Below are positions 49,840 through 62,889 of a stretch of DNA of 64,000 nucleotides, piece by piece. Numbering within the stretch: position 1 is the stretch's first letter; the number at the start of each line of letters is the position of its first letter. This stretch comes from Candidatus Collierbacteria bacterium RIFOXYD2_FULL_45_13 (GTDB taxonomy: Bacteria; Patescibacteriota; Microgenomatia; UBA1400; MFAQ01). The notes under the pieces are model-generated. The model did no database searches and was not told where the DNA came from. It worked only from the letters and a program-made list of their open reading frames with translations. The stretch covers positions 801,444 through 865,443 of the forward strand of contig MFAS01000001.1 of NCBI GenBank assembly GCA_001774685.1. The letters run 5' to 3'. The translations under genes were made by a program, and so were the position numbers.

Positions 49840-50595
49840 CTATTTCTTATTGTCTCCAGCAATCATCTTCATCGCTTCTTGAACTGTCGTCATGAACTGA
49901 GCCGGGAAAATAATCGTCGAATTCTTTTCTACCGATATCTCTGCCATCGTCTGCAAAGTTCTCAGTTGCAACGCCACGGGATGAGCCGCAATTACATCGG
50001 CGGCTTCGGCCAATCTTTTCGCTGACTGAAACTCTCCCTCCGCCGCCACGACCTTGGCTCTTCTCTCACGCTCCGCTTCGGCTTCTTTAGCCATCGCTCT
50101 TTGCATGTTATCCGGTAATGCAATATCTTTGATCTCTACCGCCGTTACTTGAGCGCCCCACGGCTCAGTGTGTGTGTCGATCACTTTTTGAATCTGCTTA
50201 TTTATTTCCGTAGTTTGGGACAAAAGCTGGTCAAGGGTAAACTGCCCAACGACATTTCTGACGGTCGTCTGAGAAATCTGATTTACCGCAGAATAGACGT
50301 CATCGATCGCCACTACAGATTTCTGCGGATCAACCAGATGGTAATAGGCCACCGCCGCGATATCGATAGAGACGTTATCTTTCGTAATAATCTTCTGTGA
50401 AGGAATACCCATGGTAATAGTACGGAGCTGGACCTTGCGCATGACCTCCAAAAAAGGAATCAAGATTATGAGGCCGGGACCACGAACACCGGTACACCTG
50501 CCCAAGAAAAAGATCACTCCTCGCTCGTACTCCTGAACGATCTTCAAACTGGCAAATAACACCACCAAAATAGCTACGATTACTGGTATTTCCAT
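49840..50595 (-). CDS. SPFH/band-7 (stomatin/prohibitin-like) membrane protein
   Basis: An N-terminal transmembrane segment is followed by LKIVQEYERGVIFFLGR...VSIDIAAVAYYHLVDPQKSV, and the C-terminus is an AEAERERRAK coiled coil. Confidence 0.85.
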   Translation of the reverse strand: MEIPVIVAILVVLFASLKIVQEYERGVIFFLGRCTGVRGPGLIILIPFLEVMRKVQLRTITMGIPSQKIITKDNVSIDIAAVAYYHLVDPQKSVVAIDDVYSAVNQISQTTVRNVVGQFTLDQLLSQTTEINKQIQKVIDTHTEPWGAQVTAVEIKDIALPDNMQRAMAKEAEAERERRAKVVAAEGEFQSAKRLAEAADVIAAHPVALQLRTLQTMAEISVEKNSTIIFPAQFMTTVQEAMKMIAGDNKK

Positions 50596-53077: not shown

Positions 53078-53521
53078 TCAAAAGTCATTCATAAACGCCG
53101 TACGTACCGTTTTCAAGTGTCTTTTGGTCAAAGCTCTGGGATCGTCCATGTCCGCAAAGACGGCATAGAGGTCATATACAAATCGGAAGCCCAACTTTAA
53201 CCCTTCGGCATAGAACTCAGCTGAGCCAGATCGCCGATAGCTCAAGTGAACAAACGAGTCTGCGTCGAAAAATTTATCTGCCGGCATGTAGAGATTGGCC
53301 ATTTCAAGAACCTGAGTTAAATCTCGGCTCCAATCTGCCAAACAATTCATCGCTTGTTCGGACATTTCAGTTAAACCCACCTTTAATCTATCCTCAGCCA
53401 GATTCATCCCTGTCATGATGCCATAGACCAAGGCATTCATATCAGCCGGATGGCACGAATCCGCTCTCATCTGCTCCAAACGAATTTTGGCCCGAACAGT
53501 TAGATCATAAACATCACTCAT
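53078..53521 (-). CDS. Hypothetical protein
   Basis: 147-aa ORF followed on the minus strand by hairpin GGAGCACCCCTTCGGGGGTG and a T-tract. Confidence 0.4.
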   Translation of the reverse strand: MSDVYDLTVRAKIRLEQMRADSCHPADMNALVYGIMTGMNLAEDRLKVGLTEMSEQAMNCLADWSRDLTQVLEMANLYMPADKFFDADSFVHLSYRRSGSAEFYAEGLKLGFRFVYDLYAVFADMDDPRALTKRHLKTVRTAFMNDF

Positions 53522-53593
53522 TTTGCCTCCAACTTTTCAAGGTGTATTGCTTGCCTATGCTACCACACAATCATTTCCAAATCAAGCTATAGG

Positions 53594-54316
53594 CTAGATT
53601 CTGAACGGAACGAATTTGTATCTCTGCTTAGCCTTGAACTTGGCCTCTGAGTACCATTCCTTTCTGGCAAAAAACATCAACAGCCACCAACTAGACCGCA
53701 AAAAACCACCCAATGCCTGGCTCCGGTGGGCAAAGACCGCCCTCCATTTTCTCCTCGCCTCAAAAATTGTCATATTTAGTTCCAACGTAGGCTTATGTAA
53801 ATATTTGGCTGTCCGCTTGTCTACAATTTTTTCTTTCATCCGGCCTTCAAAACTCACCCACAACAAATTCACACCCGTCATTTTTCTCAGAACCCTCAGC
53901 ACGACGAGCGATGCACTGATATGATCCGGATGGCTGGTGACCCCCGATAAATCGTAAGTTACTACCACTCCTGGCTGAGTATCCTTAATAAATGTTGCCA
54001 ATCTCTCCTGCCATTTTTTCGTTCTTCTCAACTTACCATCGTCAAACTTCCACATCACCCAGTCCATCACTGCCAGTCGGCTCATGGCTTCCGCCATCTC
54101 CTGGCGGCGGATTTCGGATACACTTCGCCCTCTCCCATTCACAAAGATTTTTCCTCGATTACCTTCTGTCAAAGTCAGGACCGTGACTTCAAAACCCCAC
54201 GCCATCGCTCGCTGAATAATTCCCCCGGCCATCACCGACTCATCGTCCGGATGCGGAAAAACCACTAGCATTTTTTTGTTGGCTATTTTGTCTAAATATG
54301 GGTCGATTGATTTCAT
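53594..54316 (-). CDS. PIG-L/LmbE-family N-acetylglucosaminyl deacetylase
   Basis: VVFPHPDDESVMAGGII (zinc-binding H-P-D-D-E motif) and a later HxDH-like HPDH motif. Confidence 0.75.
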   Translation of the reverse strand: MKSIDPYLDKIANKKMLVVFPHPDDESVMAGGIIQRAMAWGFEVTVLTLTEGNRGKIFVNGRGRSVSEIRRQEMAEAMSRLAVMDWVMWKFDDGKLRRTKKWQERLATFIKDTQPGVVVTYDLSGVTSHPDHISASLVVLRVLRKMTGVNLLWVSFEGRMKEKIVDKRTAKYLHKPTLELNMTIFEARRKWRAVFAHRSQALGGFLRSSWWLLMFFARKEWYSEAKFKAKQRYKFVPFRI

Positions 54317-56935: not shown

Positions 56936-57024
56936 TGTTTAAAGAACTCCTCCCGATGGTTCTATGATATCACTAGTTAAATTTTTACCACAAAATACCC
57001 TGCTAAAAATAGCAGGGAGTCAAA

Positions 57025-57330
57025 CTAATCCAATTGATCATGAGGTGCCCACTTATCCTCTAAACGAGTCAATATTTCTCTAAGCTGTTTTCCCGAGATG
57101 GCTCTGTCTGGATCAAAGCCGACAGGCCTGGCGGTCTGGTCAAACAGAAAGAATGTTACACCACCGGCCGCCAGCCTCTTCAACAATTCGTTGTAGGCAC
57201 TAAAGTCCGGATCTTCCCCATCGGAGAGCATCACAACAGTCTGGACGGTATAGTATTCCGTGGCTTCACATCCACCTTTCAAGAGCTGGTCGTTAGACGC
57301 ACTATCATCCACCGGGAAACTGAATGTCAT
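57025..57330 (-). CDS. Hypothetical small protein
   Basis: 101-aa ORF. The VVMLSDGED segment is reminiscent of a vWA-domain fragment. Weak. Confidence 0.25.
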   Translation of the reverse strand: MTFSFPVDDSASNDQLLKGGCEATEYYTVQTVVMLSDGEDPDFSAYNELLKRLAAGGVTFFLFDQTARPVGFDPDRAISGKQLREILTRLEDKWAPHDQLD

Positions 57331-57379: not shown

Positions 57380-57988
57380 TTACATCTCACCCCTGCCCTC
57401 AAGAGCCCTCGTCAGCGTCTGCCCGTCCGCATACTCGATATCGGCGCCAGTAGGCAAACCGCGCCCAATCCTGGTTACTTTCACCGTCTCTTTCAAACCC
57501 AGCTCCTTAATTCTCTCCATTATATACATCGCCGTCGCCTCCCCTTCCATATTTGGGTTGGTAGCCAAAATCAATTCCTTAATCTCGCCCGTCTTTAATC
57601 GTGCCATTAGCTGAGGGATGCGCAGGTCATTTGGGCCAATGCCCGCCAAAGGGTTTACCGAACCACCTAATACATGATAAACGCCTTTGTAGCCATCGGC
57701 ACGCTCGAAAGCCAATAGGTCTAGTGAAGTCTCCACCACACACACCAAACTCTTATCCCTACTTTCGTCCTCGCAGACAGGACAAAATTCCTCTTCACCG
57801 ACGTTAAAGCATAAGGCGCAAAGCTTAGTGTCCTTCTTTAGATTCTCCAAAGATTGGGCAAATTTGCTCAGCTTCTCCTGCGGAACATTCAGAAGATAAT
57901 AGGCGAGTCTGGCAGCCGACTTCGGCCCAATACCGGGCAACGCCTCAAACGCATCGATAACTTTTTGAACCGGACGGATACTACGCAT
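57380..57988 (-). CDS. recR: Recombination protein RecR
   Basis: HhH ALPGIGPKSAARLA, C4 zinc finger CALCFNVGEEEFCPVC, and a Toprim domain. Confidence 0.92.
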   Translation of the reverse strand: MRSIRPVQKVIDAFEALPGIGPKSAARLAYYLLNVPQEKLSKFAQSLENLKKDTKLCALCFNVGEEEFCPVCEDESRDKSLVCVVETSLDLLAFERADGYKGVYHVLGGSVNPLAGIGPNDLRIPQLMARLKTGEIKELILATNPNMEGEATAMYIMERIKELGLKETVKVTRIGRGLPTGADIEYADGQTLTRALEGRGEM

Positions 57989-58285: not shown

Positions 58286-58354
58286 TTCTTTAAAATTAAC
58301 TTGTAACGGTTCAATTCTACCAGAAACCCGCTTCCAGGGTAGATACGCAAGGTT

Positions 58355-60154
58355 TTAAAACGTTTCCCCCATTTTGGTGTGATGGGAACCGGTTCTATCA
58401 ATTTTGTTTCTCCCAAACCCTTGCTGGGCACACCACTTTTTGTAATAATTCCCTATTGCCAGTAAGTCCCTTGCGTTCATGGCATCATAATCGCCTTCAT
58501 CGGACGCGGCTCTCATGACTGCCCACTTAGCTCCAGCACTTACTTTCACCTCACCTCGCTGAAAAGCCGATTTAAGAAGGTCCTTAGATTTGGTGTCCGT
58601 TAGGGCATACCAGACCCCCTTCACAAATGTGACCCCAGAAGGATCAGCGGTAAATGTTCTCAGACAAAGGGCTGCCTTCTTTCCGGTAAATTTTAACAAC
58701 ATGTTTTCGTCGACCAAAATTGCGTTCCCAGCCAGGATATCTTCCAACATCCTTCCCTCAGACGCACTACACAGATACCAGTCCCCTCTTAATGCCACCA
58801 AATGTTGATCTGTGTCCAAATGATATGCTTTGAGTGCTAGTTTTAACTCTCTCGGAAAGTTTTGGATCGGCATCAAAGAGGTAACTACGGCAAGCTCCAG
58901 CGCGAATCGGTCTCTGTTTTCCTCCCTGGCAATTGTTTCAAAAAGTTTCACTACTCTTGGGTCCAAAAGAACCTCTTTGGAACTAATCCGTAATCTACCA
59001 CGGGCTGTAAATAAATACTCAGTGTCCATCTCGTTTGTATCGTCGATGTCAAATATGGTTGCGAGCATTCCGTCTCTTTCTTCATCGTCTACATTTTCCA
59101 AGTAGTCAACCAGAGCATCCCTATCCGGTTTGTCCATTAGCTTGATCGCATCTTCCATTCTGGTACTACCTTGTTCAATTTCTTTTCTTTTATCGGCTTC
59201 TCTTTTATATCTGGCTGCCTCCTTTCTCATTTCCGGTGGCATTTGCTGCTTCATCTGTTCGTAAAATTCAGCATTTTCTGTCAAGCTATCCAGAACCACT
59301 GTCCACAAACTGCCTCTAGGATCCCTCGGATCCTCCAGTTCTTTTTTATGTTTATATATTGTATCCATCAACTCTCCCACCTTCCCACTATTCGCCCCCC
59401 CTTGCCCCACACGCTCATTTACGTCACAGAGTATCGAAACATATTTCCTAGTAAAGGGTGCACTCCACCCAGGGTCAATTTGAAAATCTCTCTTAATAAC
59501 TTCGAGAGCGGTATCAAGTTGAGAATGCTTCCTCAAAACTCTCCAACTTATAACCCTTTCGGTAAGGGATGTCGAACATGACATATCCGAAATCAAATCA
59601 ATCGAGAATCTAGCCAAATCCGGTCCTTTCTCAAAACCATTTTCTATATTAGCGCAAACCTTGCCCGCAAAATCTTGATCACCGGCACGAACCTCGGACA
59701 TCCTTAGCCTCATTGCTTCAAATACGGTTCTTACTGCTAGGTTATCCTGAGGGTTTTCACCATCAAATCTTCCGAGTTTCTCTTCAGACCGGGCAATGGA
59801 GTAAAGCATCGAAATCACATTGTCGGGAATGGCGGCCATTCTTTCAATCGGCGCTTGGGAAATATAAGCACCGAGGATCAAAGCTATCTCAGCCACCGGG
59901 GTATTTTCTTGTAGTGGGCGGACGATATCGGTGGAATAGTTATTAAAATCAACCCCCTTTTCTTTAGCCATTTGCTCACCAAGCTGTAACGCCATAGCGT
60001 ATTCATCGGCTCCACCCGCCATTCCATTTTTGAGTCTTTGTCTGGACAGTTCTACCCTAGCTCTGGCAGCCTCCAATTGAGCCAATTTCCGTTGTTTCTC
60101 CCCCTCTGATTCCAGGTCGATTCCCAATACACGTCTAAAAAAGCTCTCGATCAT
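58355..60154 (-). CDS. Large hypothetical protein (599 aa) of unknown function
   Basis: A long intact ORF with no motif I can recognise. It shares an ATGA start/stop overlap with the upstream 89-aa ORF and sits between dnaX and ybaB. Confidence 0.5.
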   Translation of the reverse strand: MIESFFRRVLGIDLESEGEKQRKLAQLEAARARVELSRQRLKNGMAGGADEYAMALQLGEQMAKEKGVDFNNYSTDIVRPLQENTPVAEIALILGAYISQAPIERMAAIPDNVISMLYSIARSEEKLGRFDGENPQDNLAVRTVFEAMRLRMSEVRAGDQDFAGKVCANIENGFEKGPDLARFSIDLISDMSCSTSLTERVISWRVLRKHSQLDTALEVIKRDFQIDPGWSAPFTRKYVSILCDVNERVGQGGANSGKVGELMDTIYKHKKELEDPRDPRGSLWTVVLDSLTENAEFYEQMKQQMPPEMRKEAARYKREADKRKEIEQGSTRMEDAIKLMDKPDRDALVDYLENVDDEERDGMLATIFDIDDTNEMDTEYLFTARGRLRISSKEVLLDPRVVKLFETIAREENRDRFALELAVVTSLMPIQNFPRELKLALKAYHLDTDQHLVALRGDWYLCSASEGRMLEDILAGNAILVDENMLLKFTGKKAALCLRTFTADPSGVTFVKGVWYALTDTKSKDLLKSAFQRGEVKVSAGAKWAVMRAASDEGDYDAMNARDLLAIGNYYKKWCAQQGFGRNKIDRTGSHHTKMGETF

Positions 60155-60420
60155 GCTGATTTGTATTTACTAATTTCTATTTCTGCCAAAGGTAGATATA
60201 GTTCTTCAAACTTTGATATCATCTCATTTAACCGTCTCTCAAGCAGATCGTTTGAATAGTTGCCGTCAAAACGGCTATCCAAAAACTCTAAGATCTCCCT
60301 CTCCCTCTCGGATGTCAAGTTGTTACTCCCCTTTAGTTCTTCAACAGTATGTCTGACAATCCGGACGACTTCGTCCTTCAATGAATGTGGTTCCATATGG
60401 GGTATTTTACCACTCGTCAA
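60151..60420 (-). CDS. Hypothetical small protein (89 aa)
   Basis: The ORF is translationally coupled on both sides: a 4-nt overlap with dnaX upstream and with the 599-aa ORF downstream. Confidence 0.4.
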   Translation of the reverse strand: MTSGKIPHMEPHSLKDEVVRIVRHTVEELKGSNNLTSEREREILEFLDSRFDGNYSNDLLERRLNEMISKFEELYLPLAEIEISKYKSA

Positions 60421-61970
60421 ATCCCGTTTTTGCTCCCAAAAATCTTCTCTGCTGCCGACATCACCCCACTCCCCGCCGAAACCATCTCATCTTTAGGAGC
60501 GGTCAAGTTCTCATCCTCTTGGATGGCATCAGTCCTCACCACTTTATCTATCAAGACACACTTAAAAGTCATCGGCCCCCAGACTTTGGACATTTGCTCC
60601 TCTATCAACTTTCTCTTTACATCTCTCTCCAGCATATCTTGTTGAAATCTTGAGGTTACGGAAATGGTGAGTGACTTACCTTGGACGTCCACAGGCGAAA
60701 CCAACCGAAGCATCCCGGCGAGCGACCCATTACTCTCTGCCATGGAGCTTAAAAAATCCCCCCATCCGGTTTTGACGCTTTCGATATTCACCAAAACGGC
60801 TTGGTTATTTTGCGCACTTCCGGTGCTCGAATCAGTCTCTTCTCGCCTCTTTATCAAGGTTTCCGAACTTGACCTAACTATCGAATCTTTAGGTAGTAAC
60901 TTTTCCTGGGCAGGCGTCTCCACTTTTGGGCGGGTTATTCCTCCCTTCTCGCCCAAAGCGACCGACAAAAGGGCTATCTCTATCGGCAAGAGAGGAAGAG
61001 GTGAAATCTTGATCCGGTCGGCTGCTGTTATCAAACCATCAATAATTTCTAGATACAGTCCTGCGCTTTCGCCGGATCGTATCTTATTTTCCATTAATGC
61101 TTTTGCTTCTTCTAGTAGCGAGGAAACTAATATTGTTGCTTTTACGCCAGTCTTCTCCATACTCGCGAACGTGTCCGTAATCTCCTCTGTGTTTGCATTA
61201 GACACTGAGACTAACAGCTTCTTCACGGAATGTCTGCCCACCACACCCAACACTTTCGTCAGTGTATCCTCATTAATTTTCTTATCGTACGAAGACAGCT
61301 GCTCCAGTATCTTGTGGCCTTCACGGAAACTGCCGTCAGTTGCCTCGGCAATTTGCCGAAGAACTTCACCTGCGATATTCAATTTTTCCCCTTTCACTGC
61401 CTTAAGGAGAGACTCGACTACTTCATCCACCGTAGCTTTTGTGAAATTTACTCTTGCGCAACGGCTTGAAATGGTTTCTGGAACCTTCTGAGACTCAGTA
61501 GTACACAGGATAAATAAAGCGTGCGTCGGAGGTTCCTCGAGTGTTTTGAGCAGTGCGTTAAAACCGGCCGTGGACACCATATGAACCTCATCAATGATAT
61601 AGATTTTCTTTTGTAATTGGACCGGCGACAGCCTAACTTTCTCCCGGAGATCACGGATATCATCCACCAGTCCGTTACTGGCAGCGTCAATCTCAATTAC
61701 GTCAACACTACTACCTCCACCAATTACCCGACAGGCCTCGCACTCTCCACAAGGCTCGGAAAAATCTTCCGTTTTGTTCTGATTCTTCTCGCAATTAACT
61801 ATCTGAGCCAAAATCCTGGCGGTACTGGTTTTACCAGAACCTCTAGGGCCTACAAACAAGTAAGCGTGGGAGATTTTCCCGGAAGCCAATGTCGAAAGTA
61901 ATACATCGCGAACCGACGCCAAGTCTAATTCGGCAATTTTTTTGGGTCTGTATGTCTGGTAAAAACTCAC
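60417..61970 (-). CDS. dnaX: DNA polymerase III subunit gamma/tau
   Basis: MSFYQTYRPKKIAEL...HAYLFVGPRGSGKTSTARILA (Walker A), a CxxC zinc module, and the sensor motifs. Confidence 0.92.
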   Translation of the reverse strand: MSFYQTYRPKKIAELDLASVRDVLLSTLASGKISHAYLFVGPRGSGKTSTARILAQIVNCEKNQNKTEDFSEPCGECEACRVIGGGSSVDVIEIDAASNGLVDDIRDLREKVRLSPVQLQKKIYIIDEVHMVSTAGFNALLKTLEEPPTHALFILCTTESQKVPETISSRCARVNFTKATVDEVVESLLKAVKGEKLNIAGEVLRQIAEATDGSFREGHKILEQLSSYDKKINEDTLTKVLGVVGRHSVKKLLVSVSNANTEEITDTFASMEKTGVKATILVSSLLEEAKALMENKIRSGESAGLYLEIIDGLITAADRIKISPLPLLPIEIALLSVALGEKGGITRPKVETPAQEKLLPKDSIVRSSSETLIKRREETDSSTGSAQNNQAVLVNIESVKTGWGDFLSSMAESNGSLAGMLRLVSPVDVQGKSLTISVTSRFQQDMLERDVKRKLIEEQMSKVWGPMTFKCVLIDKVVRTDAIQEDENLTAPKDEMVSAGSGVMSAAEKIFGSKNGI

Positions 61971-62120
61971 ACTAACACCTTATGGCTTTTCACAGGCTAT
62001 GTCAACTGGAAAAAACTTGCTCATTCCTCTGTCTTTGACCGCTGTAGCCAGTTTTTCCGAAATTATCATGCCTAAATAACTTTTCACGCTACCAACATAT
62101 AAGTCTACCGAAGAAAAGGC

Positions 62121-62149
62121 ATAAAAAATCCCCCGTTAACAGCGGGGGA
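62121..62149 (-). terminator. Rho-independent terminator for the gene at 62155-62493
   Basis: On the minus strand: TCCCCCG-CTGTTAA-CGGGGGA followed by TTTTTTAT. Confidence 0.5.
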
Positions 62150-62154
62150 AATAT

Positions 62155-62493
62155 CTATGATTCCACAATTACACGAAATATCGTTTTTTCTGCACCCAAA
62201 TCACGCTCAATGACCACCATACCGTCATCGAGATAGGTAATTGTAACTTTCTCTTTGTTCAGATCCCAAGTAATGTTACGGATCGGCTTCAGGGGAATTA
62301 CCAGACGACCATTATCGAAGGTGAAACCTGATAGCAGCTTAACCACCGCAGGAATAGCCTTGGGTTCAGCGCTCAAGCCCTTGCCCCGGAAAAAGGACAC
62401 GACCCTCAGAGGCTTGTCGAAAAGCTCTTCCACCAACTCCGTCGCCACCGCTTCACAGTTATCCATCGTGACAATTATTTTTCTCATAAACAC
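62155..62493 (-). CDS. Hypothetical protein, member 1 of a tandem paralog pair
   Basis: IIVTMDNCEAVATELVEEL...VIPLKPIRNITW aligns with VILVTDDNCISVAREIVARL...TIPISPKRKIQW of the next ORF. Confidence 0.4.
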   Translation of the reverse strand: MFMRKIIVTMDNCEAVATELVEELFDKPLRVVSFFRGKGLSAEPKAIPAVVKLLSGFTFDNGRLVIPLKPIRNITWDLNKEKVTITYLDDGMVVIERDLGAEKTIFRVIVES

Positions 62494-62502
62494 TCCTTCT
62501 TC

Positions 62503-62889
62503 TCACACTATATCAACACTTATTATCATCGAATAGAAAATGGCGTTTAGAAAAGACTTTTCGATCGTGATTCTGCCGTCTTCATGAAAAGTTACAAACA
62601 CTCTCTCGGTAATCATATTCCACTGGATTTTTCGTTTTGGGGAGATCGGAATAGTCAAATTACCCGACTCAAAGTGATATCCAAGCTGGGGATCAAAACC
62701 AGGAATAGGACCATCGTCGTAGAGCCTCAAACCAGAGATCTTTTTAAACTTCGGTCTTGGTTTAATGTTTGTTTCAACACTTTGAATCGAAAAGGTCTTT
62801 TTTTGTAGTCTAGCAACTATCTCTCTTGCCACACTGATACAGTTATCGTCGGTAACCAGGATTACCTCATCCATCTTATTCACCTCCAC
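62503..62889 (-). CDS. Hypothetical protein, member 2 of a tandem paralog pair
   Basis: See the previous feature. The two ORFs are 9 bp apart. Confidence 0.4.
   Translation of the reverse strand: MEVNKMDEVILVTDDNCISVAREIVARLQKKTFSIQSVETNIKPRPKFKKISGLRLYDDGPIPGFDPQLGYHFESGNLTIPISPKRKIQWNMITERVFVTFHEDGRITIEKSFLNAIFYSMIISVDIV

Follow-up and report, generated by a model that had tools for sequence, protein, structure and literature searches.

What are the two genes that lie between dnaX and ybaB in Candidatus Collierbacteria bacterium RIFOXYD2_FULL_45_13, and what has kept them there? The question arises from a 64,000-nucleotide (nt) stretch of contig MFAS01000001.1 (positions 801,444 to 865,443, the whole of which is called the window here), for which a first-pass annotation had described open reading frames (ORFs) of 89 and 599 codons as two unfamiliar insertions into a conserved replication operon. 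Both ORFs are found on the minus strand where they had been placed, and the picture of lineage-specific additions to a normally contiguous dnaX-ybaB-recR neighbourhood holds. Together they make up a two-gene module that, as far as the sources named below show, is restricted to Candidatus Collierbacteria and related Microgenomates of the candidate phyla radiation (CPR), and we rate the larger product as a new protein family with a new domain, one for which Pfam, NCBIfam, PADLOC, PHROGs, PDB and BFVD hold no match. The core of the locus is laid out as follows (aa, amino acids; pI, isoelectric point).

60417-61970, minus strand: dnaX, encoding DNA polymerase III tau/gamma, 517 aa with a GTG start (Pfam DNA_pol3_delta2, E 1e-41; TIGR02397, E 2e-98)
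60151-60396, minus strand: small partner gene, most likely 81 aa from the ATG at 60396 (the mechanical ORF, 60151-60420, has 89 aa from the TTG at 60420)
60151-60154, minus strand: ATGA stop/start overlap of the small and large genes, read in the sequence
58355-60154, minus strand: large gene, 599 aa
58835-60154, minus strand: N-terminal ~440 aa of the large gene product, a predicted all-helical HEAT/ARM-like alpha-solenoid, acidic (pI 4.9) and fast-evolving
58358-58834, minus strand: C-terminal domain of the large gene product (aa 441-599), conserved, basic (pI 8.9), predicted to be beta-rich with two helices
57992-58285, minus strand: ybaB/ebfC, the downstream flank, encoding a nucleoid-associated protein of 97 aa (PF02575, E 1e-6)
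57380-57988, minus strand: recR, 202 aa (Toprim_4, RecR_HhH and RecR_C)

The notion that these are spurious or decaying ORFs without function might be suggested by a word-indexed search of 5.8 billion proteins, in which the large protein was orphan-like and found only its own 90% cluster, a 150-sequence profile adding nothing further. It is extremely improbable, and we regard it as ruled out by the ratios of nonsynonymous to synonymous divergence (dN/dS) measured with an orthologue of 90% identity from an ENA contig (L001) as the reference, which are 0.13 for the large gene, 0.09-0.18 in its every segment, and 0.18 for the small gene, and by diverged homologues in the same arrangement. A full HMMER search against 1.84 billion cluster representatives places the large protein in a family of 217 representatives at E<=1e-3 (84 at E<=1e-10), its AlphaFold2 model is confident, and the pair is conserved in six lineages. 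A foreign composition was likewise rejected: the insert is native in codon usage and in GC content (0.451 for the pair, against a window mean of 0.453). Five proteins of the locus are identical, residue for residue, to proteins of Candidatus Collierbacteria metagenome-assembled genomes (MAGs; KKT40184.1, OGD73411.1 and others, with the dnaX product an exact match to KKT40186.1), which are annotated as 'hypothetical protein' and occur also in GCA_001774675.1, contig MFAP01000001.1; the lineage of the matching proteins is Patescibacteria / Microgenomates group / Candidatus Collieribacteriota. Genomes of this kind stem from groundwater at Rifle or Crystal Geyser.

The start of the small gene bears on how closely the pair is tied to dnaX. 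All six small-protein homologues (6/6) begin at a Met equivalent to the ATG at 60396, several GenBank annotations call an 81-aa small product, and in L001 the corresponding TTG stands clear of the dnaX stop; for these reasons the small gene is taken as 60151-60396, with the ATG as the likely start, and the TTG at 60420 is probably not a real one. Only one of the two ATGA overlaps first described stands, that at 60151-60154, and by it translation of the small gene is coupled to that of the large one, as had been proposed; the other, at 60417-60420, reads TTGA, a TTG lying over the TGA stop of dnaX. Co-translation with dnaX is rejected, since the overlap depends on a TTG that homologues do not use. 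What remains is a pair co-oriented with dnaX, with 18 nt from the dnaX stop to the small ATG and 69 nt from the large gene to ybaB.

Only four relatives of the large protein align over the full length (41-26% identity); most others share only aa 440-555, the segment in which conservation is concentrated, and members range from about 140 aa, the domain almost alone, to 903 aa. The 64-kb window holds one copy. The motifs of the domain are W-x-L-C-x2-[AS]-E-x-[RK]-L, L-V-N-x2-L-L-x-K-F-x-G-K-x-[ST]-A-L-C, G-x2-F-x2-G-N-W-Y-S-P and G-x-W-x2-M-R, and across 150 sequences the residues W459, L461, C462, E466, K488, G491, C497, G507, G513, W515, Y516, W544 and R548 are near-invariant. With the family alignment, AlphaFold2 models the full protein at a pLDDT of 92.9 and a pTM of 0.90 (pLDDT 87.4 for the domain alone), residues 1-440 forming an all-helical solenoid and residues 443-550 a beta-rich unit that is followed by two helices. 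The first-pass description of an acidic, helical, Cys-poor protein is roughly right for the whole (pI 5.3, six Cys), the acidic helical character belonging to the N-terminal 440 aa (pI 4.9) and the C-terminal 170 aa being basic (pI 8.9).

That no motif could be recognised by eye agrees with the searches. Neither the large protein nor 32 diverse relatives gave a significant match to Pfam, NCBIfam, PADLOC or PHROG models; in PADLOC-DB 2.0 the window proteins matched nothing and the 32 members gave four unrelated single-member matches, all at E>0.002; the C-domain had no match in BFVD, and a profile search of PDB had none. SH3-like small beta-barrels, including the WYL ligand-sensing domains, were considered as a close system, and no significant sequence or structural match to them was found. 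In the predicted structure of the N-terminal part, tandem helical-hairpin repeats form a solenoid as in HEAT/ARM/TOG proteins, examples being AP-1 beta1 (4p6z_B), the Stu2 TOG domain (6mzf_E) and condensin Ycg1 (5oqn_A), a likeness generic to the fold class; these proteins differ in sharing only 4-12% sequence identity, in lacking the C-terminal domain, and in that the large protein has no Pfam HEAT/ARM match at threshold. Apart from this generic solenoid class, the pair belongs by sequence or fold to none of the systems with which it was compared; it has no annotated homologues, and it is not a known domain fusion.

How the family is distributed was examined in context loci collected with a 16-sequence alignment of the C-domain. 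A member lies between dnaX and ybaB in the window and in L001, L004 (together with the near-identical L016-L019), L012, L020, L021, L035 and L038, and in L005 (labelled Collierbacteria), L015 and L037, whose contigs end early, one stands directly 5' of ybaB-recR. At least ten diverged lineages have the pair, or only the large gene, in the gap from dnaX to ybaB. The flanking proteins are 75-100% (YbaB), 78-94% (RecR) and 50-80% (DnaX) identical to those of the window, so the carriers at the dnaX site are related organisms, and in a neighbour-joining tree of the C-domain the members at this site fall mostly on one side. In L012 the gap from dnaX to ybaB holds two members in tandem, of which the second is broken by a stop; L035 carries, besides its member at the dnaX site, a very divergent one between ybaB and recR (hidden Markov model E 1.5e-12). 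The interrupted copy (L012 4819-6555) is split by its in-frame stop into ORFs of 307 and 269 aa, which may reflect a pseudogene or a sequencing error. The MAG contigs L002, L003 and L004 are titled 'uncultured Pseudomonadales' or 'Gammaproteobacteria'; for L004, whose YbaB and RecR are 80-83% identical to those of the Collierbacteria window, the title looks wrong.

The small protein, acidic (pI 5.2) and helical, has no match in Pfam, NCBIfam, PADLOC, PHROGs or PDB. Its homologues are encoded directly 5' of the large gene in L001, L035, L036, L037, L020 and L038, at a spacing of -4 to +22 nt, the ORFs being of 79-83 aa in the last five. They are 49% identical to the window protein in L035 (E 5e-23) and 39% in L036 (E 1e-18); the L020 ORF is linked to the family via L036 (E 2.5e-8), direct BLAST of the 89-aa ORF against this 83-aa ORF having given no match, as was also the case for a first set of small upstream ORFs. 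The two genes thus form a conserved pair in one sub-clade, and other family members, including L004 and L021 at the dnaX site, have no small partner. In L009 (97-4633), two large members, of at least 606 aa and of 777 aa, are neighbours; the 89-aa ORF that separates them has no detectable similarity to the small-partner family.

The family is also found elsewhere. In L036 the pair sits between the gene for phosphoribosyl pyrophosphate synthetase (prs) and an opposite-strand DHH-family gene; other paralogues lie between mreC and mreB on the opposite strand, after pdxS-pdxT, or beside genes for superoxide dismutase, an ERCC4 nuclease, and AbiEii or AbiEi. The last are the paralogues at L006 796-1461 and L007 2297-3079, which adjoin AbiEii toxin or AbiEi antitoxin-like genes (type IV toxin-antitoxin / abortive infection). 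At the dnaX site itself the module is missing from one sister lineage: in L030-L034, known from independent assemblies of ENA, JGI and Logan data, a 188-nt spacer joins dnaX to ybaB in a wider synteny that is the same (HIT, YqeY, YbeY, two small ORFs, dnaX, ybaB, recR, PIG-L, CysS), with identities to the window of 80% for DnaX, 94.5% for RecR, 96% for YbeY and, in L030, 99% for YbaB. Two similar segments (ATTGCTT...TCGCAATGACG) are present in that spacer (L030 4813-5000), along with a number of short hairpins, for example TTCGGTGTACCGAA and CCAGAAAATTCTGG.

The tempo at which the pair has changed can be read from three relatives, for which the identity of each protein to its counterpart in the window (%) is:

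L001: DnaX 80, small protein 94, large protein 90, YbaB 100, RecR 94
L035: DnaX 72, small protein 48, large protein 40, YbaB 91, RecR 88
L020: DnaX 62, small protein 28, large protein 26, YbaB 88, RecR 86

Over long distances the pair evolves faster than DnaX by a factor of 3-4. For the window and L001 the relation is inverted, with a synonymous divergence (dS) of 0.19 in the small gene and 0.36 in the large gene, against 1.5 to saturation in the flanks (ybeY, a gene of 110/112 aa, dnaX, ybaB and recR). At the nucleotide level, a block of about 92% identity runs from ~60441 to 58700, beginning within about 25 nt of the dnaX stop, against 60-80% for most of the flanking sequence; raised values are seen over the final 300 nt of dnaX and the opening 120 nt of ybaB. 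With L035 as the outgroup, the window, L001 and L030/L031 lie at about the same distance from one another.

This pattern is part of the support for a homing-type selfish cassette that would target the dnaX-ybaB spacer and use double-strand-break repair to place copies of itself in unoccupied sites: close relatives differ in whether the site is occupied (it is empty in L030-L034), the highly identical block starts close to the dnaX stop, and the raised identity at the end of dnaX and the start of ybaB resembles co-conversion. CPR genomes are also known to carry homing-endonuclease insertions, those described in PMC11270868 being in rRNA genes. Against such a cassette, which we think very unlikely and have set aside, neither sequence nor fold reveals a nuclease domain (LAGLIDADG, GIY-YIG, HNH, PD-(D/E)xK and others), and there are no terminal repeats and no target duplication, only chance-level matches of 12-20 nt. 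A 14-nt direct repeat at the cassette ends (58404-58417 and 60427-60440; 86%) was considered as a target duplication and rejected, as it is one of 16 similar pairs at chance level. Diverged copies are already present at the site in the outgroups L035, L037, L020 and L038. The simplest history is one of ancestry, loss and ordinary homologous exchange, with a module ancestral at the site, lost in the L030 lineage and, in a recent exchange of this kind involving the window and L001 lineages, replaced. Low dS is moreover not unique to the cassette, values of 0.42-0.52 at 53078-54316 and 0.67 at 49840-50595 standing out from the 1.2 to saturation found otherwise, which points to genomes that are recombination mosaics with frequent homologous exchange between Collierbacteria lineages. 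An origin from phages, plasmids or viruses was rejected as well, no family member having been found on the viral contigs, phages and plasmids of IMG/VR, INPHARED and PLSDB. The loss from one sister lineage means that the module is dispensable.

Whether the pair interrupts an operon, as first supposed, or is added to the end of one depends on the transcription signals around it, which are:

58314-58322, minus strand: extended -10-like element TGGTAGAAT in the 69-nt spacer between the large gene and ybaB, the putative ybaB-recR promoter
61968-62005, minus strand: promoter-like TTGACA-N17-TAAGGT directly 5' of the dnaX GTG, a putative promoter by consensus match only
62129-62149, minus strand: terminator-like hairpin upstream of the dnaX promoter-like site, from the consensus scan
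56998-57017, minus strand: terminator-like hairpin after orf101, from the consensus scan, the likely 3' end of the transcription unit or units

From dnaX to recR, the consensus scan of the minus strand found no terminator-like site beyond weak stems of 5-6 bp. In all 11 of the 11 lineages examined (window, L001, L004, L005, L012, L015, L020, L021, L030, L035 and L037), the sequence TGnTAnAAT, with a GTTA box after it, is found about 30 nt 5' of the ybaB ATG, at the same distance with or without the pair and including the empty site of L030, and 49 nt of the spacer that precedes ybaB in the window are 94% identical to L030. The gene pair ybaB-recR probably has its own promoter, whatever lies 5' of it, a situation with parallels in E. 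coli ybaB-recR and Borrelia ebfC, for which an internal promoter has been reported (PMC9610160, which describes the dnaX-ybaB-recR linkage in E. coli as well as a dnaX-ebfC linkage for Borrelia). Because the extended -10-like element is conserved, the pair can be placed at the 3' end of the dnaX unit, ahead of the ybaB-recR promoter; to call it inserted inside the operon is too strong, and we infer that it lengthens the dnaX unit without dividing a single obligatory operon. Nor is the link to dnaX universal, for two opposite-strand genes in L035 and a 190-nt gap in L004 come between dnaX and the family gene or genes.

The mechanism that we prefer, tentatively, is that of an accessory adaptor with ties to the replication or recombination of DNA or to the nucleoid. 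In it, the variable solenoid would serve as a protein-docking surface, the small acidic protein as a stoichiometric partner or regulator of the large one, and, with the pair made from the dnaX transcript in this genome, its dosage would follow the synthesis of the replisome. Such an adaptor is favoured by the positional persistence and recurrence of the family in one interval, by its co-orientation, by the basic conserved domain and by its DNA-handling neighbours: the module has kept its place at the 3' end of dnaX and before ybaB-recR over a divergence that takes DnaX down to about 50% identity; the genes around it encode tau, YbaB/EbfC and RecR; a domain with a pI of 8.9, in which aromatic, Lys and Arg residues are invariant, is compatible with the binding of nucleic acid or a ligand; and in the libraries searched the pair has no link to phages, plasmids or known defence models. 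As an idea this resembles the clamp-loader accessories chi and psi (HolC/HolD), which are encoded outside dnaX, and other additions to the replisome that are confined to certain lineages: non-universal proteins that dock on tau/gamma and bridge DNA-handling proteins. The genes here adjoin dnaX and, in this genome, are co-oriented and tightly spaced. The module differs from clamp-loader subunits in having no AAA+ clamp-loader or HolC/HolD match in NCBIfam or Pfam and in being dispensable.

Several observations weigh against an adaptor of this kind. Absence from L030-L034, with their otherwise identical synteny, means that the module is not a core part of the replisome, and its proteins retain only 26-40% identity where DnaX retains 62-72% and RecR 86-88%. 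Paralogues occur in unrelated contexts (mreC/mreB, pdxST, superoxide dismutase, AbiE, prs/DHH), the coupling to dnaX transcription is not conserved in L035 and L004, and the invariant Cys, Glu, Lys, Tyr and Arg could form the active site of an enzyme instead of a binding surface.

The first rival is a conflict module (toxin-antitoxin, abortive-infection or anti-phage), in which the large protein would be an effector or sensor, perhaps with the solenoid as the sensor and the Cys/Glu/Lys/Tyr/Arg site of the C-domain as the effector, the small acidic protein its neutraliser, and the dnaX-recR interval an integration hot spot. As in type II toxin-antitoxin pairs, a gene for a small acidic protein lies directly 5' of that for its larger partner with an ATGA overlap, and the whole is patchy, has been duplicated and laterally exchanged, and occurs as a unit in two contexts, the second being L036. 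Presence/absence polymorphism among sister lineages and very fast divergence speak for such a module, as do tandem or local duplication and a stop-interrupted copy (L012, L035, L009 and L024), recent lateral exchange (dS 0.19-0.36 in the cassette against 1.5 to saturation in the adjoining genes), the two paralogues that adjoin AbiEii/AbiEi genes and near-invariant polar residues suggestive of catalysis. We consider this reading possible and doubtful. No toxin, antitoxin or defence model in PADLOC, PHROG, Pfam or NCBIfam was matched by any of 32 members, and no toxin or antitoxin fold was detected; the small protein has no DNA-binding antitoxin fold recognisable by sequence; the 'toxin' would be a 600-aa protein with a solenoid, and many members, L004 and L021 at the dnaX site among them, lack the small gene. 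Selection at short range is purifying, not diversifying, and the family is not found on phages or plasmids.

The interval between dnaX and recR, for its part, behaves as an accessory-gene hot spot. Other lineage-specific ORFs of 95-157 aa, some of them on the opposite strand, accumulate there in relatives:

L001, 8342-8815: extra interval ORF
L020, 6600-7007: extra interval ORF
L035, 4053-4340 and 4352-4660: extra interval ORFs
L038, 5531-5923 and 5941-6246: extra interval ORFs

None of the five scanned from L001, L020 and L035 has a Pfam match, and the precomputed Pfam entry for the two L038 ORFs is empty. Like the core-gene hot spots of defence islands, the interval holds different ORFs in different relatives and is empty in one, a feature that would suit a conflict module; it differs in that no integrase, transposase or known defence gene is found at the interval and that the same protein family is the main cargo of nearly all occupied sites. 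One family kept at one chromosomal site over deep divergence is unlike the turnover of hot-spot cargo, and unlike type II toxin-antitoxin pairs.

A third reading takes the large protein for a cytoplasmic scaffold or enzyme specific to the lineage, with a role that has nothing to do with DNA, for instance in protein assembly or metabolism, and its position beside dnaX for a historical accident at a transcriptionally permissive spot. Unrelated ORFs do occupy the interval in relatives, the promoter-like element of ybaB-recR implies a spot that tolerates insertions, paralogues are scattered among housekeeping genes (mreBC, pdxST/mltG, superoxide dismutase, hexokinase and prs), and HEAT-like solenoids are generic protein-binding scaffolds. 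A single accident would not account for a family that recurs in one interval, in tandem in L012 and again between ybaB and recR in L035, and the basic C-domain would suit nucleic-acid binding; we think this explanation unlikely.

Three further ORFs adjoin the dnaX-recR stretch. On the recR side, orf101 (101 aa, 57025-57330, minus strand) lies between recR and the terminator-like hairpin and has no family match; an ORF of comparable size stands at the same place in L035. Upstream of dnaX, two small adjacent ORFs on the minus strand, 62155-62493 (112 aa) and 62503-62889 (128 aa), are distantly related to each other as paralogues, with about 35-40% identity in part of the sequence as traced through matches in L001 and L020; they are conserved in relatives and have no family match.

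What, then, would the pair mean for these organisms? Families of unknown function are described as common in CPR genomes (PMC6744442), so a lack of annotation is by itself unsurprising; what stands out is the positional persistence of the module and the absence, in the libraries searched, of any match for the domain. We hold it possible, with considerable doubt, that the C-domain is an undescribed fold with an active or binding site of its own (Cys462, Glu466, Lys488, Tyr516 and Arg548), defining a CPR-restricted family that, with its small partner, would form either a new replisome- or nucleoid-coupled factor or a new two-component conflict system. Whichever account holds, a confidently modelled domain without a match in PDB or BFVD is a concrete target for structural and biochemical work. 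Were the conflict module the true account, it would be a defence or toxin family without relatives in current catalogues. A tiny CPR genome of about 1.09 Mb has nonetheless kept a 2-kb pair beside its clamp-loader gene, in a family that has been repeatedly duplicated and exchanged, and if the C-domain does bind DNA, the replisome or a nucleoid protein, the pair would be a rare lineage-specific addition to replication or recombination in an uncultivated episymbiotic group.

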